Assembly: GCA_965222075.1 (NCBI GenBank)
Contig: OZ244937.1
Span: 3,392,001 to 3,456,000 of the forward strand
Origin: Candidatus Latescibacterota bacterium
GTDB lineage: Bacteria; Latescibacterota; UBA2968; GCA-2709665
DNA: 64,000 nucleotides
Direction of reading: 5' to 3'
Below are positions 13,071 to 63,171 of this stretch, piece by piece; position 1 is the stretch's first letter, and each line of letters opens with the position of its first letter. A model generated the notes under the pieces. It saw nothing but the letters and a program-made list of their open reading frames with translations. It did no database searches and had not been told where the DNA came from. Made by a program: the position numbers and the translations under genes.

Positions 13071-13162
13071 CCCCCATCACTCCCCCCTTGAGGGGGAGTC
13101 GCAGAAGCCGAGCCGGTCCCCTGAGCTTGTCGAAGGGCAGGCGACGGCTGATGCGGTGGGGG
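13071..13162 (+). repeat. intergenic repeat family A, carrying a CCTGAGCTTGTCGAAGGG insert
   Basis: TCACTCCCCCCTTGAGGGGGAGTCGCAGAAGCCGAGCCG...CAGGCGACGGCT matches the reverse complement of 21551-21604. Confidence 0.8.
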
Positions 13163-13239
13163 GTGCTTGTGGTGACTACTGCCATCGCAACAACACAGAC
13201 CCACAACCCCTTCCAGCCCTTCCCATGCCTTCGGCGAGG

Positions 13240-16614: not shown

Positions 16615-16852
16615 CGTGATCTCCGTGTGCCGCCAGGGCAAGCACCGGAAGGATCGTTACACGATGCTCTGCACGGTCGCACAGAAGACGGTTCAAGACG
16701 ACAGGCGCCAATATCAACCCCGAATATGGCTGTTCCCGGGCGCCAGGCCGGGTGACCGGGCGGTCGGTACAGAAAGCGTTTGACCGGACTTGCAAAAAAG
16801 CCAATATTAACAAGCGGATATCGACACATACGCTGCGGCGCTCCTTTACCAC
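16615..16852 (+). pseudogene. frameshifted tyrosine recombinase C-terminal fragment
   Basis: [25 protein letters not shown]...KRISTHTLRRSF in different frames. Confidence 0.75.
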
Positions 16853-16933
16853 CCCTTTAAAATACACCTTGAAATTCCTGTCTATTCTGGCGATGTTTTC
16901 AAAAATGTTCTTATCACTGACAGGAGGTAGAAA

Positions 16934-17077
16934 GTGAAATTTTTTGTGGATTTATCGGAAAATGAGGCGCAACGTCTTGAAGCGACAGCCAAGCGACTGG
17001 GCGTTCGCCCGGAGGAACTTGCAAAGGCTGCCTTAAGTAACCTTTTAGATTATCCTGAAGAAGATGACGAACCCTAA
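16934..17077 (+). CDS. small DNA-binding/antitoxin-like protein, 47 aa, probably truncated
   Basis: AGGAGG RBS + GTG; MKFFVDLSENEAQRLEATAKRLGVRPEELAKAALSNLL. Confidence 0.6.
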   Translation: MKFFVDLSENEAQRLEATAKRLGVRPEELAKAALSNLLDYPEEDDEP

Positions 17078-17786
17078 ATGGCCACGATTAAGCCTGATGC
17101 TTGAGCAGCTATCCAATCGAGTCTATCGATGGGTCGAAGTGCACGGGGAGGCCCGAGGAGAGCCCTATCGATGGAACAGTTATGCGGTGCATATACCAGA
17201 ACGTGAGGCCCTCGCTTTGATTGATCCTCTCGAGATGGCCGAGGGTGAAGCTTTGGCCCTGGAGAGAATCTGCCGGCCGTCTCACATTATTCTGACTTGC
17301 GAGTATCATCTCAGAGAAGGCGAACAATACCGAAAGCGTTGGGGCTCGACTCTGTTGGCAAATGATGTTGAGCGGGAGAGGTACACCACAGCTCTGGACG
17401 GCTGGTTCAGCGATGGGGACACGCTTCTGGAGACGATCAGATGCGTCCTCGTCCCAGGAGGGTTCTATCCGGAGACGGCACTGCTCGTGCAAGGAGATCC
17501 AGCGGTGCTCATCATCGGCGATATTCTCTCAGGAGCGCGATGTGATGCTGGCATTTCGGATGGCGAGCTTGGTATCGCGTTCCCCGAGTACGTTCCTGAT
17601 CTAAGTTCGATTCGAAGGTCCCTGGAAAGGCTGAACGGCCTGGAGTTCGACGTACTCTGTTTCGGACATGGTGAACCAGTCCGACAACAGCCAAGAAAGA
17701 AGCTCCTGGAGTTGTGGGAGTCGGATGAAGTTTGGTCCAGGCTTGAGGAATTGAAGGAAGAGCGAGGGCCGAAGGAGGCAGAGTAA
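17064..17786 (+). CDS. metallo-beta-lactamase fold protein (cassette gene)
   Basis: ALIDP, IILTCEYHLR, IIGD, LCFGHGEP; start may be ATG 17097. Confidence 0.8.
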   Translation: MTNPKWPRLSLMLEQLSNRVYRWVEVHGEARGEPYRWNSYAVHIPEREALALIDPLEMAEGEALALERICRPSHIILTCEYHLREGEQYRKRWGSTLLANDVERERYTTALDGWFSDGDTLLETIRCVLVPGGFYPETALLVQGDPAVLIIGDILSGARCDAGISDGELGIAFPEYVPDLSSIRRSLERLNGLEFDVLCFGHGEPVRQQPRKKLLELWESDEVWSRLEELKEERGPKEAE

Positions 17787-17829
17787 ATTTGTCCGCCCAT
17801 TGTATTCCGTTTTGGCGGGAGTGGAGAGG

Positions 17830-17861
17830 CCCCAACGCCGTATAACGCGGGAACGTTGGGC
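17830..17861 (+). other. internally deleted attC-like site
   Basis: CCCCAAC...GTTGGGC only 32 bp apart, between two cassette-type genes. Confidence 0.55.
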
Positions 17862-17886
17862 GTAATTGGTAGACTTTTGTGGGACT

Positions 17887-18288
17887 ATGCGCATCCGAGA
17901 ATTTGAGTCATCTGATGCTGAGTGTCTTGTCGAGATCCTGCGACTGAATGGCCAATATTCGAGCGCAGAGGTCGAAGGTCCAGCCGCTATGGAGCGATTC
18001 GCTCAATGCGATGTAGCCCTGTTCCTTGTCGCCGAGGAAGGAGGTCGACCGAAGGGGCTCCTTCGTGCAGTCTATGACGGCTCGAGAGCTATGGTGCACC
18101 TTCTCTCAGTGCATCCCGAATATCATCGTAAGGGAGTCGGTTCAGATCTACTTGTTGCTGCTCAGTCAGAGCTACGGCGTCGTGGCGCTCCTTCACTCAG
18201 TGTGACTGTAACAGAGGAGAGTGCAGATTTCTGGGAGAAACACGGTTTCAGTCGGTTACCGGTATTTCTGATGCTCAAGAAATTCTGA
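17887..18288 (+). CDS. GNAT acetyltransferase (cassette gene)
   Basis: LSVHPEYHRKGVGSDLL motif A; FWEKHGF. Confidence 0.9.
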   Translation: MRIREFESSDAECLVEILRLNGQYSSAEVEGPAAMERFAQCDVALFLVAEEGGRPKGLLRAVYDGSRAMVHLLSVHPEYHRKGVGSDLLVAAQSELRRRGAPSLSVTVTEESADFWEKHGFSRLPVFLMLKKF

Positions 18289-18310: not shown

Positions 18311-18621
18311 GCCCAACAGCACGTTTTGCGCTGCGGCGCTTTCGCGCCTTGGCCTTCGGCAACCCCTCGACACCCTTCGACAGGCTCAGGGTTCAGACTC
18401 AGGGTGCAAGGGTGCAAGCTCAATGATGGTTCGTTGAGCTTGTCGAAACGAACGCATACTCAGGGTGCATACTCAATGATGGTTCGTTGAGCTTGTCGAA
18501 ACGAACGCATACTCAGGGTGCATACTCAATGATGGTTCGTTGAGCTTGTCGAAACGAACGCATACTCAGGGTGCAGGCTCAGCGGCCGAGCTCGGGTTCG
18601 TAAGTGGCGAGAACGTTAAGC
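18311..18621 (+). other. expanded 311-bp attC site
   Basis: GCCCAAC...GTTAAGC; arms match the reverse complement of attC 55684 and attC 63030. Confidence 0.75.
18420..18575 (+). repeat. 3 x 53 bp tandem repeat inside the attC
   Basis: TCAATGATGGTTCGTTGAGCTTGTCGAAACGAACGCATACTCAGGGTGCATAC starting at 18420, 18473 and 18526. Confidence 0.92.
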
Positions 18622-18714: not shown

Positions 18715-19161
18715 ATGGTTGAAATCTCCGTACGACTTGCCACCGATACCGACATGGACTGGTGCAGATATACACTAACACTCGACTCCAACTACCCAAC
18801 TCATCAGCTCTCCGGTCTGAGTGAGTTGATCGTAGCTGAATTAGATGGCCAATTGGTAGGCGTGTTACACCTTGCGTATTTATGGCCAGGTCAACAAGGA
18901 GGCACCCCTTATATCAGTGGAATCATCGTGATCAAGGAATATCAACGCAGAGGTGTTGGAAAGGCTCTTTTAGGATTTCTGGAGCGTCTTTTGAAAGAAC
19001 GAGATCAGAGGGTTCTGCTAAGCTCGTGTGTTATCAACGAGCATGAACCTCAAACCTGGCATAGGCATGTGGGCTTCAAGAGCTGTGGGAATCTGGAGGG
19101 AATTCCCTTTGATGATGAATTGGGAGAGGTGTTCTTCTACAAACGACTGGATCAGCAGTAA
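18715..19161 (+). CDS. GNAT acetyltransferase (cassette gene)
   Basis: EYQRRGVGKALL; WHRHVGF. Confidence 0.88.
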   Translation: MVEISVRLATDTDMDWCRYTLTLDSNYPTHQLSGLSELIVAELDGQLVGVLHLAYLWPGQQGGTPYISGIIVIKEYQRRGVGKALLGFLERLLKERDQRVLLSSCVINEHEPQTWHRHVGFKSCGNLEGIPFDDELGEVFFYKRLDQQ

Positions 19162-20513: not shown

Positions 20514-21461
20514 ATGGGCACTTTAGCGATTGCTCCCTGGAAAGACGGAGATATGCAACCGGTGATGGATCTCTGGCAGCGGGTGTTTGCAGACCGGAAA
20601 TATGATTTCCGGATGGATGAAGCGGGGTTTCGGCAACGGGTGCTGGCACATCCGGATTTTGACCCGGAGGGGGCGCTGATTGCAAGGGTGGAAGGCAGGG
20701 TTGTGGGGTTTGTTCTGGCGGTGGCGCCCGGGCGTGGAGAGACGGGCTATCTGAGTGTGCTGATGGTGGATACGGATTTTCGGCAAAAAGGGGTTGGGGG
20801 TATGCTCATGGATGCCGCGGAGGGATTTCTGGCAGGTTGCGGAAATACGGAGATTCGGATCGGTTACAAAGGTAATCCGGTCTCATTTGCAACTGGTGTC
20901 GATGTGAAGACGCCGGCCTATACATTCTTCTTGAATCGGGGGTTCCGCAACCGCGGGTCGGTGAGTCTGTTTATGGAAACGACGTTTGCCGAGTTTAAAC
21001 TTCGGGAGGAGATAGAAGGTTTTATTGAAAATAACCGATCTCGAGGCATCCTGTTCGGGCTGTGCGAAGCAGGACATCGGGAGGCGTTATGTGCGTTTAT
21101 GGAGGCTTTGTTCCCGGGTGGTTGGGAGGCTTCTGTAAAAGGATGTTTGGATGGAGGCCCGCCATATCCCGTGATAATTGCGACGGACGGACCGGCGGTG
21201 GTGGGTTTTGCCGGGCCGATCCGGGTGGGCGCGGATGGTAGCGGCGGTTTTACGGGGATCGGGACACATCCGGATTACCGACGGGGCAAGATCGGAACCG
21301 TGCTGTTCAATCTGATGTGTGCGGAGTTCAAAAAACGGGGTATGGTACGCAATACGCTCCATACGGGACTGAATAATCCGGCGCAGGAGATCTATTTCGG
21401 CGCAGGATACAGGGTGCGACATCTGGTGGATTATCACCTGGTGAAACGGTTGGGGAAATAA
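20514..21461 (+). CDS. tandem GNAT acetyltransferase
   Basis: two motif A copies (FRQKGVGG; YRRGKIGTVLF). Confidence 0.9.
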   Translation: MGTLAIAPWKDGDMQPVMDLWQRVFADRKYDFRMDEAGFRQRVLAHPDFDPEGALIARVEGRVVGFVLAVAPGRGETGYLSVLMVDTDFRQKGVGGMLMDAAEGFLAGCGNTEIRIGYKGNPVSFATGVDVKTPAYTFFLNRGFRNRGSVSLFMETTFAEFKLREEIEGFIENNRSRGILFGLCEAGHREALCAFMEALFPGGWEASVKGCLDGGPPYPVIIATDGPAVVGFAGPIRVGADGSGGFTGIGTHPDYRRGKIGTVLFNLMCAEFKKRGMVRNTLHTGLNNPAQEIYFGAGYRVRHLVDYHLVKRLGK

Positions 21462-21550: not shown

Positions 21551-21604
21551 TAGCCGTCGCCTGTCGGCTCGGCTTCTGCGACTCCCCCTCCAGGGGGGAG
21601 TGAT
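21551..21604 (-). repeat. repeat family A, copy without the insert
   Basis: reverse-complement match to 13077-13150 lacking the ~21 bp insert. Confidence 0.75.
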
Positions 21605-22966: not shown

Positions 22967-23039
22967 GCTTTGAAGCTGGCCGGTGCATAGCGGGCAAATC
23001 AGAAGCGCGTTTCCACGATACCGGACGCGCAGAAGTCGA

Positions 23040-23090
23040 ACTTCCCTGGTAACTTCCCTGGTAACTTCCCCGGTAACTTCCCCGGTGACG
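23040..23090 (-). repeat. 4 x 12 bp tandem repeat encoding T(G/R)EV, a remnant linker
   Basis: AACTTCCCYGGT units; TGEV repeats are typical linkers of Fic/wHTH proteins. Confidence 0.7.
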
Positions 23091-33699: not shown

Positions 33700-34064
33700 T
33701 GGTGGAGGCGGCGGGAATCGAACCCGCGTCCGAAGGCAGTTCAACGACAGCGTCTACGTGTGTAGTCTACCTTTTGAGTCTCACGCGCCGACACCCCGGT
33801 AAACAGGGTTGCCCACACGCCAGCCCGATTAAAATCTCACCCGGAACCCTCGGGGCGGAGGCGCCCGGGCCAGCCTGCATCAGTCGACGCCCCGGCCATA
33901 TCCTGCAAGCGGGATCTGACGGGACGGGCTGCGCTTTAGTTACGCAGCCAGTGCGTACGAGTTATCGTTCGCAGTTGTGTTTTTCCCCACTGGTTTAACG
34001 AGGTAAATGGGACCTCGACACGCAGCTCTCGTCTCCCCCCCTCCGTCGAAGCCTTGTCGCCCCC
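33700..34064 (-). ncRNA. ssrA: tmRNA, tag peptide ANDNSYALAA (33940-33972)
   Basis: 5' GGGGGCGACAAGGCTTCGAC; 3' GCGGGTTCGATTCCCGCCGCCTCCACCA; internal tag ORF ending ALAA-TAA. Confidence 0.96.
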
Positions 34065-54746: not shown

Positions 54747-54829
54747 GCATAACGTTTCTCCGGTTTGCGAACCGCGCAGCGGTTGCGCGGAGGGGCGGAT
54801 GCCCCGTAGCCGGGGGCACGGTGTTACAG
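54747..54829 (-). other. attC site
   Basis: GCATAAC...GTTACAG, family consensus. Confidence 0.8.
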
Positions 54830-54900
54830 GATGTGCCAGTTCAGGATATTGGGCTCCCAGCTTGCTACGGACGGCAAGACCGCTACATAAAAGATACCAC

Positions 54901-55614
54901 TCAGTTTCGATCTATCCCTAATATTGCAGGTAGGTCAGCCAATGAAGTAATTTCGTGGTCAGCTTTGATCTCAGTGTCGTTCATCAGACCTTCACGATTC
55001 AGCCAGACCGCATGCGCTCCGGCCTCACGCGCTCCGGCAACATCGTTTTCCAGGGAATCCCCCACGTGTAATAGCTGCTCCAGCGGACAGCACGCCCTCC
55101 GTGCGGTGATCTGGAAGATGCGTCGATCGGGCTTCTCAACACGCACATCCTGGGAAAGGACAGCAAAGACAAACCGGCCCTCAAGCCCACAGCGGTCGGG
55201 GTAACTATTCCCATTGGACAAAAGTCCGATCTTGAAATGAGGCGCTAGAATGTCAAGAGCAGGCAAGACATCCTGATACAACTCAATATCTTCGAAACGA
55301 TGCTTCAGATATATCTCATTCAAATGAACAGCCAGACTGCGGTCCTCACAGCCAACGCGTTCAAGCGTCCTCTCAAATGCAAGTCGTCTGATCTCCTCAA
55401 GATTCCAGGTCTTGCCCTTCACTTCCTCGGCAAGCCGATTGCGAATCACAATCATTTCGTCCACCGTAAGGGCCACAGCTCGCTCTGCCGGAACGTGCCT
55501 ACGCAGTTCCACTAACGTGTGCTTTAGTGAATGTCTCATGACCTTCTGAAAATCCCACAAAGTCATGTCGCCATCAAAAGAGATCGCTGAAATTCGCAAG
55601 GTACTCGCCTCCAC
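54901..55614 (-). CDS. HAD family hydrolase (cassette)
   Basis: FDGDMTLWD, LSNGN, KPD, HVGDSLENDVAGA; start uncertain. Confidence 0.9.
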   Translation of the reverse strand: MEASTLRISAISFDGDMTLWDFQKVMRHSLKHTLVELRRHVPAERAVALTVDEMIVIRNRLAEEVKGKTWNLEEIRRLAFERTLERVGCEDRSLAVHLNEIYLKHRFEDIELYQDVLPALDILAPHFKIGLLSNGNSYPDRCGLEGRFVFAVLSQDVRVEKPDRRIFQITARRACCPLEQLLHVGDSLENDVAGAREAGAHAVWLNREGLMNDTEIKADHEITSLADLPAILGIDRN

Positions 55615-55683
55615 TAAATGGACAAAGATGCCTCGGCGTATGATGACGACGGTTCTGCCGCTTCCAGAGCTGGGTGGCACTTC

Positions 55684-55804
55684 CTATAACGTTTCGCCGA
55701 TTCGCGAACCCCGAGCTCGGCCGCTGAGCCTGTCGAAGCGTGTCGAAGGGTTGCCCTTAGGGCCAAGGCGCGAATGCGCCGCAGCGCAAAACGTGATGTT
55801 AACT
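55684..55804 (-). other. attC site with nested insert
   Basis: CTATAAC...GTTAACT. Confidence 0.82.
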
Positions 55805-55849
55805 GCTGGCGACCCTTTTTTAGGAAATCCTTCAGTATGCATAGGATCG

Positions 55850-56281
55850 TCAGCTTTCCATTAGGGCTTGTTTGACCCGGTCTGCATATGAATCCAATTC
55901 CTCATCAGGGATACGATCTAGCCACCGTGGATAAACTCTCAATAAACCATCGTCTACTTTTCTAGGATGGATATGAAAATGCACGTGGGGGACTTCCTGG
56001 TGAGCACCTGGCCCATTGCTCTGCCATATGCTTAATCCGTCTAGCTCGAAGGCTTTTCTGACGGTTCGAGAAAGTAAGATCATAGCTTTCATAATCTCAG
56101 ATCCTGTTTCCTCTGACAGGGCATAGATGTCTGGAAAGTGCTCTTTGGGAATGACCAGAATATGCCCAGGGTTTGCTTGCCTTGGATCTATCAGCGCGAT
56201 GACAGAATCCGACTCGTATACCACCCTCGCACTCTTAGTTCCCTCCACGATTTCACAGAAGACACATCTTGATTCATCCAT
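55850..56281 (-). CDS. HIT family protein (cassette)
   Basis: CVFC, GHILVIPKEH, NG..AHQEVPHVHFHIHPR. Confidence 0.94.
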   Translation of the reverse strand: MDESRCVFCEIVEGTKSARVVYESDSVIALIDPRQANPGHILVIPKEHFPDIYALSEETGSEIMKAMILLSRTVRKAFELDGLSIWQSNGPGAHQEVPHVHFHIHPRKVDDGLLRVYPRWLDRIPDEELDSYADRVKQALMES

Positions 56282-56377
56282 ACATCCTTCACCTTGCTTT
56301 GTGCAAGAGATATAATGACGTACGAAAAGGCTCTCCGCGGTAATGGGTGTGTGCTATTCTTTGGTTTTTTCGCTTGC

Positions 56378-56471
56378 AGTTAACGTTCTGGCCACTTGCG
56401 AACCCGCGCAGCGGGTTGCCGAATGGCCGGAGGGAGCGAACGCGCCGGAGCCGCAGCCCGTCGTGTTATGT
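56378..56471 (-). other. attC site
   Basis: AGTTAAC...GTTATGT. Confidence 0.82.
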
Positions 56472-56487
56472 GTAGTTGCAGTCCCGG

Positions 56488-57333
56488 TTATCGCCGGCCT
56501 TGCCATGCATGGCAAGGCCGGAAATGGGCTGATACCTCAAACTTCAATCTGGCTTTCTTCCTGCGAAATGCTAAAGCAGTTTCGTAGTGCTTGGTGATCG
56601 ATCCTCCGTAGTTCTTGTTTATCAGGTCAGCGATACCATCAAATAGGTGCGTGCGATTGAATTCGGGCAGCGCGATGTGGTCAGAATAGGTGCCAATGAG
56701 TTTGATGTACTGTTCCGCAGAATAGTTCGCTGTCCACGCGTACACTCGGTGGATAGGATCGGCAAAAGCGGTAGTTCCGGGTTCTGGGGACTCTGATGTC
56801 GTCGGAGTACTGGGATCCCGAGGGGAATCTGAAACTACATAATGCTTGCTATAAACTTCCTGGACTTCCGCAAAGAAACCTTCGTGTTTTCTTACGTGTT
56901 GGTTGGAGAAGATGGCCAATGATCCCCTGGCCTTCAGGGTGTCACGGGCTTTAATGAATCTGACTCTTGGACTCACCCAGTGGAATGCAGTCGCGGAGAT
57001 CACAAGGTCAAACTTGCTAGCCGAGTCCCAATCTTCGAAAGGACACAGGACGAAGCAAACGTTCTTGTAGTTGTTGAGTCGCGCCCTCGCAACCTCGATC
57101 AAATCTTGGCCAATATCCAAACAGGTCATTTCGCAACCGATGGTGGCAAATAATCTCGAAGCCTGTCCGGTTCCACACCCGACTTCCAGGATTTTTCCGC
57201 TTCTATCCATTCCGGAGAGGTCCAAAACATCCCTGACAAGCTCATCAGGGTATCCGGGCCTCACTTCGTCATAGAGCGAGGCAACGGTATTGAAAGTGGT
57301 TTTGAGATCAGGGCGGGGCATTAGAATTCCCAT
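56488..57333 (-). CDS. class I SAM-dependent methyltransferase (cassette)
   Basis: YDEVRPGYP, LEVGCGTGQ, SATAFHWV. Confidence 0.92.
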   Translation of the reverse strand: MGILMPRPDLKTTFNTVASLYDEVRPGYPDELVRDVLDLSGMDRSGKILEVGCGTGQASRLFATIGCEMTCLDIGQDLIEVARARLNNYKNVCFVLCPFEDWDSASKFDLVISATAFHWVSPRVRFIKARDTLKARGSLAIFSNQHVRKHEGFFAEVQEVYSKHYVVSDSPRDPSTPTTSESPEPGTTAFADPIHRVYAWTANYSAEQYIKLIGTYSDHIALPEFNRTHLFDGIADLINKNYGGSITKHYETALAFRRKKARLKFEVSAHFRPCHAWQGRR

Positions 57334-57383
57334 GATTTGGGTTTAGGCGGCGCAGGGAGGCGTCGCTCTGGGACTACAATTGC

Positions 57384-57468
57384 ACATAACGTCCCGGCTG
57401 TTCCTGAACCGTGTAGCAGTTGGGTCAGAAGGAGCCAAGCGACTGGAGCCAGGAACAGCCTGTTATGT
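57384..57468 (-). other. attC site
   Basis: ACATAAC...GTTATGT with GGCTGTTCCTG/CAGGAACAGCC stem. Confidence 0.85.
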
Positions 57469-57534
57469 GTCTGTAGCAGTTTGCGATCGGAAAAGCGATA
57501 GAGAGGCGACCATCACCCTTCTGTTTTGTGTCTT

Positions 57535-58080
57535 TCAGGGTTTTACAGCCTGAGCAAAGAACAGACTCTGAGAATAATCGTCATACACCTTCCACTTAAA
57601 GATTTCAAAACCTGCTGTCTCGACTTCCTGAACCAGACTCTCTGGCAAGCCCCAGAAACGCGTTGCGATTCCATTCTCTATTTTGCATCGGGTCACAGGA
57701 TCAAACGGATAATCTGCATTCTTTGGCTCACCACATTTTGTCATGACGATGAATAACCCCTGAGACTTCAGTACACGATGCACATTCTTCAAGAATGCAA
57801 TGCGATCTTCGCCGATGATACAATGTAGGCAAAGGGCGTCTATGATCACGTCGAAAAACCCATCCTCATACGGCAAATCGAGGACGTTCCCAACTCGGAA
57901 ATCCGCTCTCAAATTCTGTTCCTCACCCTTTTCCTCTGCCCAAGCAATCGCCGTCGGAGAGATATCGATTCCATAGGCTTGAAAGCCCTTCTCCGAAAGG
58001 AGCAAAGAAAGATCGCCGGCACCACATCCTAACTCAAGCAAAGTTCCCGATTCCAACTCCAACTCTCGCAATACATTGGT
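57535..58080 (-). pseudogene. class I methyltransferase (cassette), 5' end disrupted by an IS4 remnant
   Basis: LLELGCGAG, GIDISPTAI, CLHCIIG; N-terminus replaced by transposase sequence. Confidence 0.8.
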
Positions 58081-58870
58081 CACTTTGCCGAAGTTCCAGG
58101 TCGTCCGACCTGCCTGTGCGTTGCACGCACGCAGACAGGTCAAGCGAGATGGTGAAGTCACACTTGACTGGCAACAGACCTGCCTGTGCGTTGCACGCAC
58201 GCAGACAGGTGCAAGATCAAGTCGACCACCAGATCATAGGGCAGATGAAATCCACTGAAGAAACGTTGAATCCTGCGATAGTTGGACTTCTGCTTGGCTT
58301 TGCCGTTGAGAACGTTGGCCAGTTTGCTGAAGTTCACTGTTGTCAGTTTGATGAGGGATAGGATGAACGCGCTGACCTGCCTGTGCGTTACCGCACGCTT
58401 GCCTGCGCGCAGCGCGTCTGCCTGTGCCGAAGGCAGACAGGCAAGCAGGCAGACAGGTGAATTTCACTCGGGCTTTATGCCAGAGAAAATGCCATTGCAT
58501 TACCTCTTGCAATTGGTTAACTTGGGGAGACATGGACCTGTGCCTTTCTTATGAATGAGTGGTTGGATTGTGGCCAACCCAAACCTAACTCATTTCATCT
58601 AAAAACGCAGGTCTTTTCTATTGAGTGTGTAGGAAATCGCGGGCGCTTTGAAAGGGCCTTCAGACAGCATAAATGCCTGCTCGACATTTCCCAAATCCCA
58701 TTTTGGCCCCTGAGGCTGCTCATTGAGACCAAACATCGAGGATACTTTAAATGTTTGGCCTGAAAAGCAAGAAAATTCACGATAACAAATTTCGTAAGTG
58801 ATTTTTTTTCAGACTGTTATTTCGCCTGTAAAATCCTACACACTCTTTTCTATTTTGTCGTGTACCTTGA
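58081..58870 (-). mobile_element. truncated IS4-family element with three palindromic inserts in the transposase
   Basis: removing the inserts restores HKARVKFISAFIL...SNYRRIQRFF...ISLDRTTWNFGK; probable end CAAGGTACACGACAAAA near 58870. Confidence 0.8.
58109..58457. repeat. CCTG...CAGG palindromic micro-elements: 58109-58139 and 58179-58209 (identical 31 bp) and nested 58376-58457
   Basis: CCTGCCTGTGCGTTGCACGCACGCAGACAGG, each inserted at GA^T. Confidence 0.9.
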
Positions 58871-58901
58871 TCCGGTCCATAAATCCCAAAACTGCCATGG
58901 C

Positions 58902-59006
58902 ACATAACGTTCTGGCCACTTGCGAACCCGCCGAGCACAGCGAAGGTGGGTTGCCGCTAGGCCGAAGGGAGCGAATGCGACCGAAGCGCAAGTGGACGTG
59001 TTACAC
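58902..59006 (-). other. attC site
   Basis: ACATAAC...GTTACAC with CCACTTGCG/CGCAAGTGG stem. Confidence 0.85.
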
Positions 59007-59067
59007 GCCGGCGCCTTGATAGCGAAGCTCATTTGGCGCAGGAGTTGCGCACCCGGCATCTCGCCAA

Positions 59068-59772
59068 TCAATCCCCAGCCAGCAGGAATCCGATCCGCCA
59101 TCTACCTTTGAGATACTCGAACTGGGCACGGTAGCCGATGGGGCTTCTACAATCTGAGGCCAAAACGTAACCAGAAACTCCATCCAAGGTCGTGACCCTC
59201 TTCCATTCTCTTCCGGCCTTGTCTCGCGGATTCGGCTCGTTCACATCTTTGACGATTTCGTAGCTCAGAGTATCAATTGCCGCTGAACTTAGGCTCATCT
59301 CGGGCCGCAGTGGAGCAGCCTCTGACTTGATAGCCGAATAGAAATAGGCGTCGTAAGCGTCTGGCCATCGAGAAAAGAAGTATGGAATTATGAAAACTGT
59401 GCAGCTGTCATTCTCACACGTCGCGCCAAGTGCCAGCAATTCCTCTAGGGTGCTCCACAACCTAGACTTCTTTGGCTTCGATCTCAGGTTCCAGTAATCG
59501 AGAAACCCTTCCCTTCCGAATCGTCCTCCGTAACTAACGTGAATATCTGGTTTCAGATGATCTAGGACAAAATCGAGGTCTTTCCGCTCAACGGCTGAGG
59601 CCAACTCTGAGCGAAAGTTACCGAAGGAGTCGCTGAGATAAGTTTCGTCAATCGGTAGCAGTCGAGTAACACCCGTACCTGCCAGGAGACTCAAGGGTAG
59701 GGCTATAACCAGGAACGTAGCTCTGAGTATCATGTCAAATCGTTGGTGCGAAGGTAGTTGGTTTGTCTTCAT
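59068..59772 (-). CDS. exported protein with C-terminal SH3b-like domain (cassette)
   Basis: signal-like hydrophobic stretch; W..V.T.DG..GYV...RSPIGYRA. Confidence 0.8.
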   Translation of the reverse strand: MKTNQLPSHQRFDMILRATFLVIALPLSLLAGTGVTRLLPIDETYLSDSFGNFRSELASAVERKDLDFVLDHLKPDIHVSYGGRFGREGFLDYWNLRSKPKKSRLWSTLEELLALGATCENDSCTVFIIPYFFSRWPDAYDAYFYSAIKSEAAPLRPEMSLSSAAIDTLSYEIVKDVNEPNPRDKAGREWKRVTTLDGVSGYVLASDCRSPIGYRAQFEYLKGRWRIGFLLAGD

Positions 59773-59807
59773 ACACCTGTCGGGTGCCTCCGACTTCCGA
59801 CGCTGGC

Positions 59808-59889
59808 GTGTAACGTTTCAGTGCCCCCGAACCGCGAAGCGGTTGGGCGAAGGGCCGAATGGCCCGAAGCCGGGGGCACAATGTTAGGC
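59808..59889 (-). other. attC site
   Basis: GTGTAAC...GTTAGGC with GTGCCCCCG/CGGGGGCAC stem. Confidence 0.85.
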
Positions 59890-59899
59890 GAAGTCTCCG

Positions 59900-60328
59900 T
59901 TACTGAAAGCGGACCACGCATTTGTATCGTTGAACACCCGGATATTTCTCGCCGAGAGGTTCTATTTCAAATCCACATGATCTGTAGAAGCCAACGGCAT
60001 CGTCGTCAGTTTCTGCCTCTAACTGGCCAAACCTCAGATCGTCACGAACGAACGCAATCAGTCTCCGTCCTATGCCTACACCCCTCCATTCAGGATGAAC
60101 GGCGATGTGGGTGATGATACACCGGCTTCGATCGGATGAATCCAAACGTACGATTCCAACGGGCGCGTCCTCGCATCTGGCAACCCATAACGTCGTGAGG
60201 GAGTTCGAAGTGCAAGACTGCATGAGCTCTCCAATAGCAGCCTCTGTGGGTGCACCAACGGACTCGGCAAGAATACTCGCCACATCCTTTGCGTCCGACT
60301 CATCAGCATGAAAACGATGGATCTGCAT
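59900..60328 (-). CDS. GNAT acetyltransferase (cassette)
   Basis: IAVHPEWRGVGIGR, ETDDDAVGFYRSCGF. Confidence 0.92.
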   Translation of the reverse strand: MQIHRFHADESDAKDVASILAESVGAPTEAAIGELMQSCTSNSLTTLWVARCEDAPVGIVRLDSSDRSRCIITHIAVHPEWRGVGIGRRLIAFVRDDLRFGQLEAETDDDAVGFYRSCGFEIEPLGEKYPGVQRYKCVVRFQ

Positions 60329-60340
60329 CTTGGAAATGTC

Positions 60341-60430
60341 GCCTAACGTCTCATGATTTGCGAACTCGCGAAGCGGGTTGCCGAAGGCCAAGGCGCGATC
60401 AGCGCCGCAGCGCAAATCGCTGTGTTACAG
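60341..60430 (-). other. attC site
   Basis: GCCTAAC...GTTACAG with GATTTGCG/CGCAAATC stem. Confidence 0.85.
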
Positions 60431-60458
60431 GAAGAGAGAAAGATACAGCCTGTGTATG

Positions 60459-60686
60459 TCAACTGGTGCTCTTGGTAGAGTCCTCCGGTCCCTCTGCCGC
60501 GTCCATAAACGACCGAAGAGCATTGTTTACGGCCTCGTCCGTGGGAAATGCCTTCGCAACGTCTGGGTGGAGTAGAACCAAATTTGTCCCTGAGCAAAAG
60601 GATTCCAAATACTTACCCCGGACACCAGGACCGAGATCTCCACGGCGATATTCTGGACGCAGTTCGTCTGGATCAGCCTTCTTCAT
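60459..60686 (-). CDS. BrnA-like antitoxin
   Basis: DELRPEY...GVRGKY...LHPDVAKAFPTDEAVNNALR; overlaps brnT. Confidence 0.85.
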   Translation of the reverse strand: MKKADPDELRPEYRRGDLGPGVRGKYLESFCSGTNLVLLHPDVAKAFPTDEAVNNALRSFMDAAEGPEDSTKSTS

Positions 60687-60945
60687 AGATCCTCCTTTCC
60701 TGACGCGTCATTAAACGTGCACTGATTATTCTCGTCTTTCCGGCTCGTTGGGTATGCAAGATGACTACCAATCGATTCAATCTCGACAGGCCAAAAGTAA
60801 GATATCGTTCTTCATCCACCGAGTGATCGGGATCGGGGAAGGTTATTGCCAGCGGGTCCCCAAAAACAGTGGCCCCTTCGTGAAAACTGAGGTCGTGTTT
60901 TCGCTCGTTCGCTTTGGCTTTTTCTGAATCCCATTCAAATTCCAT
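60673..60945 (-). CDS. brnT: BrnT family toxin
   Basis: FEWDSEKAKANERKH..F, DPDHS..EER, RIISAR. Confidence 0.93.
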   Translation of the reverse strand: MEFEWDSEKAKANERKHDLSFHEGATVFGDPLAITFPDPDHSVDEERYLTFGLSRLNRLVVILHTQRAGKTRIISARLMTRQERRIYEEG

Positions 60946-61026
60946 CAGTTGACGGCTTCCTCATCAATAACAGTAGCCCCAGTGTTTTATTATCCCACAG
61001 CAAAAGCGATTCTCTGTTCTCTTTTC

Positions 61027-61101
61027 CTGTAACGTCTGCCGGTTTGCAAACCTGCGAAGCGGGTTGCCAGAAGGGCCAAGGCGCGAAACGTGCTGTTATG
61101 G
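61027..61101 (-). other. attC site, partly deleted
   Basis: CTGTAAC...GTTATGG. Confidence 0.75.
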
Positions 61102-61156
61102 GCCGTGGCACGCAATAGCCTCATCGAAAGTTCATGAGGTGGTGGGTAACACGTCT

Positions 61157-61366
61157 CTAATCATGTAAGATCTCACCCGCCAATGGAGGGCGTACTGCTG
61201 AATCTTCCAGAGTCAGAACCGCAATGGTGGTGCCCTGAGTATCCACGAACTCTACCTCCGACGCCTCGTCGTCCGCATATCTATGTACCACTGTGCCCAC
61301 ATCTCCGGCCACCAGACCGTGCTCTACAATCGACTCCTTGAGAACCACCAGATCCAATTCAGCCAT
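61157..61366 (-). CDS. DUF4926-like small protein
   Basis: ELDLVVL...GL..GDVGTVV...EVEF...G.T.AV.TL; AAGGAGG RBS. Confidence 0.85.
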   Translation of the reverse strand: MAELDLVVLKESIVEHGLVAGDVGTVVHRYADDEASEVEFVDTQGTTIAVLTLEDSAVRPPLAGEILHD

Positions 61367-61381
61367 TTCAATCCTCCTTGA

Positions 61382-61714
61382 TCAAGCTGGATAGGCTGTC
61401 ACCAGACGAGGCCTATCTGAACCAGGTTCAACAATCCAGACCGTCCGAATCCGAACACTCGAACCCGATGGGGTTTTCACACGACCATCCAAAATATACT
61501 TGGTGCCATGACGTGTCTGTATAACTTCGGAGACCTGCTCATTGCGCGCAATGGATGCTAAATCAGCTTTGAGGACAGAGGGGTCCTCCTGCCCATACCC
61601 AACACCACGGAAGAATCTCGCCTTTGCTCGACCTACGGCATGTATATCGGAAAGCAGATATTGCTCGACTTTCTCAGTAGGTATCGCCACATTTATTCCG
61701 TTAGGCAACTTCAT
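61382..61714 (-). CDS. DUF6883-like putative toxin/nuclease
   Basis: MKLPN...YLL...H..G..KARFF...HGTKY...TVWI...PRLVTAYP. Confidence 0.85.
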   Translation of the reverse strand: MKLPNGINVAIPTEKVEQYLLSDIHAVGRAKARFFRGVGYGQEDPSVLKADLASIARNEQVSEVIQTRHGTKYILDGRVKTPSGSSVRIRTVWIVEPGSDRPRLVTAYPA

Positions 61715-61757
61715 AGAATCAGTATTTGTGAATCAGATCCAATTTTCACGCCAGGGC

Positions 61758-61850
61758 CCATAACATTTCGCCGGTTTGCGAACCTGCGAAGCAGGTTGCC
61801 CGAAGGGCCAAGCTGCCGCAGGCGGCGCAGCGCAAACCGCTGTGTTCTGG
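61758..61850 (-). other. attC site
   Basis: CCATAAC...GTTCTGG with GGTTTGCG/CGCAAACC stem. Confidence 0.82.
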
Positions 61851-62030
61851 GAAATTGGAATCCACTTGAAAATATGTCTAAATTCCTGCGCAATAAGTGT
61901 CAAGGCGTTGAACCGTGGCTATCGCGATATGCTGCCCAACTACGGTTTCATCGTCATTCCTGCCCCTCAGGCTATGCATAAGGGCGTCTGCGCAATCACT
62001 TGTTTGGTGACAAAACCGGAAAAACAAACA

Positions 62031-62984
62031 TCAAAACTGGACAACAAAATCAATGTACGGCACACCGGGGAAAAATGCTTCCTCTCCTATCATATTGATA
62101 AGCGCGAGGTCTACACTCAATCGTCTGCCAAAGAATCGCAGTCCATAAGAGATCAAGGTCTCGTCTACACCCGGAAAGATCCAGTTTTCCGAAACAAATG
62201 CTATCCGTCGAGTCAAGCGTTTCTCTCCGCCAACCATCACCATAGGATGATCTGCTAAATCTCGGTCGACAAAGCCATAACCGAGTCCTGCAGTCAGGCT
62301 TGCATCGGGTTGCCCAAACGTTATTACACCATACAATATGCCCACAACTGAGTACTCATCAGGGACACGCACAAGAAGCGCGCCCACGGAAAACTGAACG
62401 GGATCTTCTTGTACTAAACCAAATTTTGGCGCGAAAAAAAAGAGTTGCTCATCCATATCTACGCCGGGAAAGATAGAAACCCCACCTCCCAGTGTAAAAC
62501 GATCAGTTACCCCATAAGCAAATCCTGGAAAAAAGAGATAATAATCGGAAAAATAACCTCTGCCCTGTTCCAGCATACGCGCCGTAGGTGCAAAGAACAG
62601 GCGCGTTGTATTGGGATTTTTAAACCAGATCTCACCATCGTGTATCGAAGTAACAGGTACTGTTTCAATGTGTTTAATCTTTGAAATGGGAATGTGGATT
62701 ATGCCCAGGTCCGTCTCAAATGCAATCTCTTCATCACCAATCTGCACGATGCGTCCGACATTTGTCGATGCATCCATTGTCTCAATCACCTGAATATGAT
62801 TAGAATCGGGAATTGCCAACTGGGCCATTAGGCATGCGCTTTTAAGTTGCGTATCCTTCGCACGTTCTTCTGCAAAGGCAATACTCATGGCGTCCAGAGA
62901 AATCGTAGTCCAGGTGGAGAACAAGAGTAACCATAGCATCCGTGTGCCAACTACAGGGGTATCGATGCATACTTTAGGTACCAT
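62031..62984 (-). CDS. exported, probable outer-membrane beta-barrel hypothetical protein (cassette)
   Basis: signal-like N-terminus; NPNTTRLFFAPTAR; amphipathic strands; C-terminal Phe. Confidence 0.8.
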   Translation of the reverse strand: MVPKVCIDTPVVGTRMLWLLLFSTWTTISLDAMSIAFAEERAKDTQLKSACLMAQLAIPDSNHIQVIETMDASTNVGRIVQIGDEEIAFETDLGIIHIPISKIKHIETVPVTSIHDGEIWFKNPNTTRLFFAPTARMLEQGRGYFSDYYLFFPGFAYGVTDRFTLGGGVSIFPGVDMDEQLFFFAPKFGLVQEDPVQFSVGALLVRVPDEYSVVGILYGVITFGQPDASLTAGLGYGFVDRDLADHPMVMVGGEKRLTRRIAFVSENWIFPGVDETLISYGLRFFGRRLSVDLALINMIGEEAFFPGVPYIDFVVQF

Positions 62985-63029
62985 GAGATCTCATTCTTTC
63001 GAGAATACTGATGGCCGTTCTCCAATTTC

Positions 63030-63171
63030 CCATAACGTCTGACGGTTTGCGAACCCCGAGCTCGGTCGCTGAGCCTGAACCCTGAGCCTGTCGAAGGGTG
63101 TCGAAGCGTGTCGAGGGGTTGCCGAAGGCCAAGGCGCGAATGCGCCGTAGCGCAACACCGTGCTGTTAGAC
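63030..63171 (-). other. attC site with doubly nested insert
   Basis: CCATAAC...GTTAGAC. Confidence 0.82.

Follow-up and report, generated by a model that had tools for sequence, protein, structure and literature searches.

Nested 23-nucleotide hairpin modules in the integron attC sites of a Latescibacterota bacterium

IS1111-attC insertion sequences and group IIC-attC introns land on folded attC, the recombination site of integron cassettes, and can travel with a cassette. These elements carry genes, measure 1 to 2 kb, use known enzymes, and insert at defined positions near the core sites. At the other end of the size range, Elhai et al. are said to have described in 2008 small dispersed repeats of about 21 to 27 nt in heterocyst-forming cyanobacteria, reportedly mobile units that can sit inside each other and for which no transposase was identified. 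Here, we analyze a 64,000-nt stretch (the window) of the single-contig, 5.36-Mb genome of a Candidatus Latescibacterota bacterium (GenBank assembly GCA_965222075.1, contig OZ244937.1, positions 3,392,001 to 3,456,000), in which an attC site of 311 bp (18311 to 18621) and several smaller ones contain copies of a 23-nt hairpin module, some nested in each other. Positions are those of the window unless marked as genome positions. Unlike the gene-carrying elements above, the module is only 23 nt long, is gene-free, and occupies a loop within the variable terminal structure of attC. From these reported cyanobacterial repeats, it differs in sequence family and hosts, in being a hairpin with a conserved tandem G.A core, in its preference for its own apical loop (giving mirror-ordered stacks), and in its occupation of attC.

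The module most resembles the repetitive extragenic palindromes (REPs) and their paired form (REPINs), which are thought to move as single-stranded hairpins with REP-associated tyrosine transposases (RAYTs) (Bertels and Rainey 2011, PMC3116915, and Di Nocera et al. 2013, PMC3733652, both in partial text). Like these, it is a short imperfect palindrome dispersed between genes, it forms inverted doublets 45 to 100 bp apart that are able to fold into long hairpins, and it reaches tens to about 150 copies per genome in a sister genus. It differs in that no RAYT gene tracks its copy number and in that modules nest in each other's loops by 23-nt steps, an arrangement that we did not find described for REPs (the word "nested" does not occur in PMC3733652 or PMC3116915). 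No GTAG or CGTC tag stands beside the stem in the module sequences displayed (no dedicated tag search or count was made). The nearest parallel is the CGTC class of REPs, for which Di Nocera et al. (2013, PMC3733652, partial text) report that a dedicated transposase is apparently lacking. In behavior, the module is closest to this class and to the cyanobacterial repeats reported by Elhai et al. On the attC side, the closest likeness is to sites of the Vibrio cholerae repeat (VCR) type, as the basal sites of our genome are already branched into three hairpins. In VCR2/1, the variable terminal structure is the central 65 bp (Bouvier et al. 2009, PMC2727003, partial text), whereas here, a single hairpin reaches about 238 nt within a site of 311 bp, and the extra DNA is a foreign repeat family rather than site-specific sequence. 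We consider it likely that the 311-bp site is a genuine attC site that was enlarged by the nesting of modules, by one reversed module, and by slippage, and that the modules are a REP-like family.

The attC family was defined from the genome itself. Seven short members were aligned into a profile, the whole genome was searched with it by nhmmer, and sites were taken to an E value of 0.5, which gave 38 sites, 9 of them in the window. They form four to five clusters, at 965 to 982 kb, 3.447 to 3.471 Mb (plus a site at 3.527 Mb), 4.159 to 4.175 Mb, 5.295 to 5.299 Mb, and a pair of sites at 651 kb; the cluster at 3.447 to 3.471 Mb takes in window positions 54749 to 63171. Cassette-type genes (GNAT, methyltransferases, HIT, and HAD) each end beside an attC site, as in cassette arrays. 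At 18311, the inverse core boxes R'' (GCCCAAC) and R' (GTTAAGC) stand at the two ends and agree with the consensus RYYYAAC/GTTRRRY; the other sites of the family have boxes of the form xxTAAC ... GTTAxxx. Folded as DNA, the basal site at genome position 4168415 has a 7-bp R stem, a 3-nt unpaired spacer, an L stem, and three small hairpins atop. Its L stem has two single-base bulges, both on the 3' arm, as in the imperfect palindrome typical of attC. By gene direction, the top strand is the forward strand at 18311 and the reverse strand in the array at 54.7 to 63.2 kb, and the fold of the basal site agrees with this.

From core box to core box, the sites measure 90 to 91 (basal), 95, 98, 116, 121, 142, 273, or 311 bp, and the size differences are confined to the first of the three top hairpins. 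On the bottom strand, this hairpin reads AACCC-GCGAAGC-GGGTT in the basal form (a), with variants GCGCAGC and GCGTAGC. The 90-bp site at 60341 to 60430 (reverse strand) has AACTC-GCGAAGC-GGGTT and belongs here. We take the GCGAAGC, GCGCAGC, or GCGTAGC that closes the basal hairpins (e.g., at 60341 to 60430 and at genome 4168415) to be exceptionally stable C-GNA-G DNA mini-hairpins. Form (b), with one module (AACCCCGAGCTTGTCGAGGGGTT), is present at four sites. Form (c), AACCCCGAGCT[CGGCCGCTGAGCCTGTCGAAGCG]TGTCGAGGGGTT, is present at two, the 121-bp site at 55684 to 55804 (top strand reverse, bottom strand reading on the forward strand) and genome 3527397; it is the single-module form with a 23-nt layer, CGGCCGCTGAGCCTGTCGAAGCG (55718 to 55740), of the stem variant CGC/GCG. 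Form (d) is form (c) with [TGAACCCTGAGCCTGTCGAAGGG] between ...CGCTGAGCC and TGTCGAAGCG, and it too is present at two sites, the 142-bp site at 63030 to 63171 (reverse strand) and genome 973277. Here, the third 23-nt layer, TGAACCCTGAGCCTGTCGAAGGG (63076 to 63098), lies in the loop of the second. The 121- and 142-bp sites are each exactly 23 nt larger than the next smaller form, and the added nucleotides lie in the loop at the apex of the first inner hairpin. The 273-bp site (genome 969865, outside the window) and the 311-bp site are forms (e) and (f). Module-type hairpins are present in 10 of the 38 attC sites. A sequence-only reading of this DNA had given lengths of about 90, 121, 142, and 311 bp, and remeasurement returned 90 (60341), 121 (55684), 142 (63030), and 311 (18311). 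The inserts it had bracketed at 55684 and 63030 both exist and are 23 nt each; its bracket at 55684 marks the same insert shifted by one base.

The module itself consists of CCC-TGAGCYTGTCGAA-GGG and a spacer of 4 to 6 nt, with a left arm CCC-T-GA-GC, a loop YTGT, and a right arm C-GA-A-GGG. In each layer, the two arms can pair through three or four G-C pairs, one T-A pair, two adjacent G.A mismatches, and one G-C pair. The tandem G.A is presumably stabilizing in this stem context. The second attC layer has CGC...GCG stems within outer CCCC...GGGG stems, so the arms covary layer by layer. The window contains 4 copies of the sequence CTGAGCYTGTCGAAG, where 0.01 would be expected (none of 100 shuffles reached 4), and the genome contains 10.

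The 311-bp site (forward strand; R'' at 18311 to 18317 and R' at 18615 to 18621; nhmmer E value of 2.4e-11) lies directly 3' of the stop codon of a GNAT acetyltransferase gene (17866 to 18288; Pfam GNAT match). The first hairpin of its variable terminal structure spans about 238 nt, compared with 17 nt in a basal site. On the bottom strand, the order is an outer left arm, a CGC-type second left arm, three 53-nt blocks, two or three left arms, the apex module, and then the outermost right arm only. The apex module reads CCCTGAGCC joined to TGTCGAAGGG on this strand; the innermost module sequence CCCTGAGCCTGTCGAAGGG is at 18373 to 18391 and the outermost right arm, TGTCGAGGGG, comes after it at 18363 to 18372 (both reverse strand). 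Each 53-nt block contains a left-arm piece (CCCTGAGTATGC), a whole module in reverse (GTTCGT...ACGAAC stems), CAT, and another left-arm piece (CATTGAGTATGCA). The reversed module, GGTTCGT-TGAGCTTGTCGAA-ACGAACG with the stem variant CGT/ACG, is found on the forward strand at 18428 to 18454, 18481 to 18507, and 18534 to 18560. Tandem Repeats Finder reports the blocks at 18409 to 18575 as 3.2 copies of period 53 (98% matches, score 320), in agreement with the 3 x 53 bp tandem read earlier. As the block is bounded by directly repeated TGAGTATGC pieces, slippage explains the tandem, and these pieces are likely the slippage points. The 273-bp site has the same architecture with the 53-nt block in a single copy. 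It also has four more CCC/GGG layers, matched four to four, of which the outermost alone is variant on both arms; this fits the outer layers being older. The proposal that the sites grew by nested insertion holds only in part: it fits the 23-nt layers, but about 167 of the 311 bp derive from the tandem duplication and not from nesting, and the arms are unequal in the two largest sites.

The minimum-energy fold of the 273- and 311-nt sites loses the R and L stems, under an energy model that gives no credit to G.A pairs. In a crude DNA partition function, the pair probability of the L stem is 0.8 to 0.9 in basal sites and 0.98 at 142 nt, and it is 0.0 at 273 and 311 nt as well as at some short sites.

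The tandem is supported by public contigs, and its copy number of three is that of the assembly. In read-derived contigs from four public runs of four studies (at least one of the runs may be the source sample of the assembly), the flanks and the right junction (18546 to 18619) are present without differences. A 62-nt unitig (18440 to 18501) is also found in all four runs without differences; since it exceeds the 53-nt period, it has to span the boundary between two copies. The left junction (18344 to 18447) is present in one of the four runs. Copy number is not readable from the contigs because the unitig depth of the repeated part is only 1.0 to 1.6 times the flank depth. This depth, where about twofold is expected, and the single recovery of the left junction are what could be expected if the tandem, or the whole long hairpin, were mis-assembled repeats. 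Such an artifact is nevertheless very improbable: the right junction and the over-period unitig recur without differences in contigs of four runs from four studies, the same block is present in single copy at genome 969865, related layered sites exist in three other genomes, and the genome is a single contig. Contigs from three of the runs also contain a relative of the 311-bp site in which the corresponding position is filled by another 24-nt sequence, one that is found in genome G020 of the same family.

Next, we considered whether the layers represent a discrete unit. We sampled 135 distinct apex units, of which the analyzed genome contributed 27 and loci of the sister genus (15 genomes, same family as the analyzed genome) 108; this is a sample and not a census, and the parser admitted sums of left- and right-arm periods from 19 to 28. 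The sum was 23 in 61 of 73 layers, 24 in 10, 22 in 1, and 26 in 1. It holds at 23 while the split between the arms varies (12+11, 15+8, or 13+10). Where the left stem was not CCC, the right stem of the same layer was its exact complement in 14 of 42 cases, whereas the right stem of another layer was in only 1 of 42. CAT/ATG and CGC/GCG layers were nested in CCC/GGG layers and in each other, and one stack ran CCC, CA(G), CGC against GGG, ATG, GCG.

Differences between orthologous loci of the sister genus provide a more direct view. At G006:225650-226050, one hairpin has 23 nt more than in G016 (flanks 86% identical), as CCCTGAGCTTG[CGGTCCCTGAGCCTGTCGAAGGG]TCGAAGGG, and the neighboring hairpin has 46 nt more; in G009 and G019, the element is absent from the orthologous locus. 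At a second locus, a 24-nt nested layer (CGTTGTCCTGAGCTTGTCGAAGGG) is found in G006 only and neither in G010 (93% identical) nor in G016, which indicates a gain in the G006 lineage. Two genomes have, and one lacks, a 23-nt side-by-side unit at this second locus. Identical copies of the inserted 23- and 24-mers, with the same spacers (CGGT and CGTTGT), are found at separate loci, and these spacers are unlike those of the resident layer, which argues for copying from elsewhere and against local duplication. Junction ambiguity was 0 to 2 nt for nested insertions and 4 nt in one side-by-side case, with no constant target-site duplication. A discrete unit thus exists, is gained or lost whole, and has as its preferred position the apical loop of a hairpin like itself. 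The sequence-only reading had postulated an element of about 21 to 24 bp that targets itself, and the 23-nt attC steps, mirrored stems, constant layer period, and orthologous differences of 23, 24, and 46 nt bear this out.

These data also speak to the possibility that the stacks arose by arm-wise slippage, with left 12- to 15-mers and right 8- to 11-mers expanding independently while selection for a stable hairpin equalizes the arms and fixes compensatory changes. Both arms are tandem arrays of short direct repeats and hence classic slippage substrates, the 53-bp x 3.2 tandem certainly arose in this way, the 273- and 311-bp sites differ in their numbers of left and right arms, and G006 contains tandem arrays of 23-nt period that are not nested. 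However, independent expansion predicts neither a constant sum of 23 whatever the split (61 of 73 layers), nor layers unlike their surroundings (CAT/ATG in CCC/GGG, CGC/GCG in CCCC/GGGG, or spacer CGTTGT against CCGCTC), nor orthologous loci that differ by a whole layer on both arms together. Head-to-tail identical copies with short direct repeats at their ends, as slippage would leave them, are found in the 53-bp x 3.2 block only and not in the mirrored layers. We therefore regard arm-wise slippage as an unlikely origin of the layers.

The attC family, including form (b), is also present in the sister genus and in a third genus, with covarying stems (e.g., AACGCCGAGCTTGTCGAGGCGTT). The pattern of a multilayer attC hairpin was matched in 4 of the 22 genomes of the family, namely, the analyzed genome (G000), G020, G018, and G002; the G002 match (two mismatches) showed no layered hairpin on inspection. 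The G020 site is form (c) with a different third layer (CTAACTCTGAGCCTATAGAAGAGCG), a net gain of 23 nt. The cassette beside it is 83.6% identical to a cassette that, in our genome, has a basal first attC hairpin. G018 has two layered sites. The first is a diverged form (d) with three layers, and the second has five arms on each side and uses TTGCGGT, a spacer that typifies the modules of its own genus. In G003, from another genus, an attC site (L228, G003:C1 ~1742440-1742500) has a reversed module plus an extra left-arm piece in the third top hairpin, not the first. Within the analyzed genome, the sites at genome 973277 and window 63032 share hairpin 1 and not hairpin 3, and the same is true of those at genome 969865 and window 18311. 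From these sequence comparisons, the top hairpins of attC appear to have been colonized several times, in more than one loop, by locally circulating module variants, and layered sites are shared between arrays and genera. The different inner layers at the same apex in different genomes fit repeated independent insertion.

In another scenario, a few ancient nestings happened once, and layered hairpins have since been passed among paralogous elements and attC sites through cassette transfer, gene conversion, or homologous recombination, while insertion itself no longer takes place. The same multilayer hairpin does occur in attC sites with a differing remainder (973277/63032 and 969865/18311), a diverged three-layer form is found in another genus, and composite elements offer identity arms of about 20 nt on either side of the loop. 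A unit-level process is still required, as there are at least five kinds of layer (12+11, 15+8, 13+10, 13+11, and 16+8) and several stem variants. Moreover, the third layers at the same apex differ between G000 and G020, and the G018 site has the spacer of its own genus. Recombination alone, to which we give a real but minor chance, accounts for spread and not for origin, and as such, it is compatible with nesting of modules. The earlier suggestion that the element travels with cassettes is in a similar position: the same layered hairpin in separate arrays and in another genus fits it, and recombination between attC sites is another possible route.

The element is not an attC specialist. The core TGAGCYTGTCGAA has 17 copies in the analyzed genome and 39 to 154 copies in each of the 15 sister-genus genomes, where a reversed-pattern control gave 0 to 2; most other relatives have 0 to 3 copies, with exceptions at 40 and 17. 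In the single-contig genome G006, most copies are arranged as plus/minus pairs 45 to 100 bp apart, and some as the head-to-tail arrays with a 23-nt period. In the analyzed genome, modules also occupy a dispersed repeat (repeat A), of which 13 places could be anchored: 7 are empty, 1 has one module, 3 have two, and 2 are otherwise different. The step from one to two nested modules is a net gain of 23 nt. As had been read earlier, a copy near 13117 is filled and one near 21560 is empty. The former (13078 to 13163, forward strand) has one module, GTCCCCTGAGCTTGTCGAAGGG (13116 to 13137), in its second hairpin, and the latter (21553 to 21602, reverse strand) reads GCCGAGCCG-A-CAGGCGACGGC. A GAGC...CGA core is common to the repeat A hairpin and attC form (b). 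At genome 493954 and 494038, outside the window, CGG-TGAGCGTGTCGAA-CCG occurs twice at a spacing of 84 nt; both copies have a variant core with a GCGTG loop and belong neither to attC nor to repeat A.

The family extends well beyond its own taxonomic family. Among the matches listed, the exact 17-mer of the commonest module variant was found in records of many phyla; by our own calculation, about 555 matches to a 17-mer are expected by chance over the whole collection. Of the 137 matches listed, 70 lie no more than 120 nt from an inverted partner core (with at most two mismatches), and a hairpin or partner feature of some kind accompanies 91, so most of them are real family members. Nested and tandem examples among the matches listed come from Bacteroidales, Chloroflexota, cyanobacterial, and Pseudomonadota records. 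Many copies from outside the family are flanked by CCGTTCG...CGAACGG, and many module copies lie just 3' of genes. The module is thus a REP-like repeat family, mostly outside integrons, sparse in the analyzed genome, abundant in the sister genus, and recognizable across phyla.

A module was also seen in a clustered regularly interspaced short palindromic repeat (CRISPR) context. In G001, which is of the same genus as the analyzed genome, a short CRISPR-like array (L175, G001:C304 ~1430-1540) contains a 38-nt spacer in which a nested module is present (two right arms, one left arm), suggesting that modules occur in some of the DNA that invades this genus. The analyzed genome has a CRISPR array with 48 repeats near-identical to those of G001 (genome 2493017 to 2496475), and none of its 47 spacers contains a module. 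Spacers 11 and 12 of this array are identical to each other.

Could the enlarged hairpins be maintained because they do something? They might tune folding and excision of the cassette, or act as a terminator or mRNA stabilizer, with modules recruited as building blocks. The tandem G.A mismatches of the stems are conserved, the T-A pair covaries to C-G, and many copies lie just behind genes. Composite elements also have a weak likeness to the Rfam small RNA family RF02901 (AaHKsRNA41, Aggregatibacter small RNA 41), whose consensus contains GCUGAgCUUGcCGAAGC ... UUCGgCAAGcUCAgC, the same core arranged as an inverted doublet. The scores of 17 to 30 bits against a gathering score of 97 indicate a shared motif and not membership, and RF02901 is an RNA of one genus. 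Modules are found in only 10 of the 38 attC sites here, with haphazard sizes, and the homologous cassette (83.6% identical) has a basal attC in our genome and an expanded one in G020. A selected function also leaves the 23-nt quantum unexplained. In the VCR2/1 assay, replacing the 65-nt variable terminal structure with a triplet changed recombination or integration only 1.6- to 2.4-fold, although, according to the authors, it may still contribute to folding under replicative conditions (PMC2727003, partial text). By analogy, it is plausible that the variable terminal structure of attC is a neutral landing site, and a selected function seems to us rather improbable.

Under our favored reading of nesting, one reversal, and slippage, 23-nt modules would nest stepwise, each new one in the apical loop of the previous one, so that the stacks of left arms and of right arms, on opposite sides, mirror each other in order. 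In the 311-bp site, one module would have been placed in the opposite orientation inside the left-arm stack, after which slippage between directly repeated left arms would have amplified the 53-bp block 3.2-fold and probably deleted some right arms; slippage can account for the right arms that are missing. The modules would derive from copies at other places in the genome and be inserted into hairpin loops, probably on single-stranded folded DNA, because hairpin loops exist only there and both attC sites and REPs are single-strand substrates. The insertion activity would presumably be supplied in trans. Stacked left and right arms would act as direct repeats, so slippage could add or remove arms and amplify anything between them. 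Cassette movement, together with recombination between similar attC sites, may then have distributed layered hairpins more widely.

Several observations weigh against this reading. Direct evidence of gain comes from the sister genus and not from the analyzed genome, in which every layered attC site could go back to one of a few ancestors. As paralogous copies of one composite element, many of the 73 layers do not count as independent events, and only 14 of the 42 non-CCC left stems are exactly complemented (the misses are mostly one-base CCC variants). The insertion point is not fixed but spreads over 0 to 3 nt in the loop (GAGC^, GAGCY^, or GAGCYTG^), and the empty/filled pair of repeat A is not clean, one base being replaced by 22 nt. 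In the two largest attC sites, the arm counts are unequal, with about 8 left and 5 right at genome 969865 and many left and 2 right at 18311, so slippage clearly acts there too. A collection of metagenome contigs gave no matches to two exact, strict patterns of the layered attC hairpin, a result that says little given this strictness. Furthermore, an enzyme for module insertion was not found, either in a search for Y1/RAYT transposases across the 15 sister-genus genomes or by inspection of five loci in G006. A Y1/RAYT transposase (PF01797) had no match in 7 of the 15 high-copy sister-genus genomes, two of them single-contig, and the intact Y1 gene of the analyzed genome has unrelated hairpins at its ends and no module core (with up to two mismatches) beside it. 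The five places in G006, where modules lie 0.4 to 1.5 kb apart, were inspected without a family search and have small unrelated open frames and no consistent gene.

Two candidate explanations for the mobility were rejected. A RAYT/IS200-type transposase as the general mover was ruled out, as it does not track the copy number. A miniature inverted-repeat transposable element was set aside, as there is no fixed target-site duplication and no parent insertion sequence was found.

The other attC sites of the array at 54749 to 61852 (reverse strand; nhmmer starts at about 54749, 56381, 58904, 61029, and 61760) have no multilayer module. The cassette genes of this array, also on the reverse strand, encode a HAD hydrolase, a HIT protein, two methyltransferases, a GNAT protein, and a DUF6883 protein. 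The 311-bp site stands alone and in the opposite orientation amid three GNAT genes (17866 to 18288, ~18716 to 19161, and 20514 to 21461) and a UxuA-like gene. In the same-genus genome G001, only a neighbor gene of this locus has a match (17071 to 17846, 93% identical), and the cassette and its attC are absent.

No intact integron integrase (IntI) was found in the genome, the best match to TIGR02249 scoring 93 bits against a cutoff of 265. Fragments matching the integrase model with 70 to 93 bits lie outside the window at genome 697214 to 697619, 416087 to 416323, and 5301112 to 5301384, the last of them 2 to 3 kb from the attC cluster at 5.295 to 5.299 Mb; they are probably decayed integrases. 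In the window, a very weak match to the model (21.7 bits) is found at 16755 to 16859, 1.5 kb upstream of the 311-bp site. With fragments only and no intact integrase, the arrays are classed as CALINs, i.e., clusters of attC sites lacking an integrase (Cury et al., PMC4889954, partial text). An Rfam scan of the window at the gathering threshold matched only a transfer-messenger RNA gene (33700 to 34064, reverse strand, 205 bits against a gathering score of 47); the attC covariance model of IntegronFinder is not part of Rfam. A 12-bp tandem, AACTTCCCCGGT x 4 with 97% matches, is found at 23039 to 23086 within overlapping open frames on both strands.

In searches of open-access literature, we found no relevant paper with the module motif, and among the papers listed for the topics of attC and REPs, none describes repeats nested in attC hairpins or nested REPs. 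What is new here is the self-nesting geometry with its 23-nt quantum, the reach across phyla, and the colonization of integron recombination sites. We entertain, more tentatively, a broader idea, namely, that from Chloroflexota and Cyanobacteria to Proteobacteria and candidate phyla, the 23-nt module is an autonomous-looking mobile unit that copies itself into the apical loops of single-stranded DNA hairpins, its own above all, by means of a host enzyme or some other enzyme that is not a RAYT and rides attC cassettes between genomes. If this were true, the module would be among the smallest known mobile DNA units, and attC sites could outgrow the sizes assumed by annotation tools.

For integrons, the sites described here imply that attC can reach 273 to 311 bp by taking up foreign hairpin repeats in its variable terminal structure. 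The default upper attC size of IntegronFinder is about 200 bp. If this limit holds, sites of 273 to 311 bp are missed and cassette boundaries are misdrawn. Basal and expanded attC sites of one family side by side also form a natural series on how the top structure relates to folding and recombination. Di Nocera et al. (2013, PMC3733652, partial text) raise, for the CGTC repeats, the question of how REP-like repeats multiply without a transposase of their own. With its countable signature of 23-nt steps and mirrored stacks and with recent gains between close genomes, the module family makes the target rules and the enzymes approachable.

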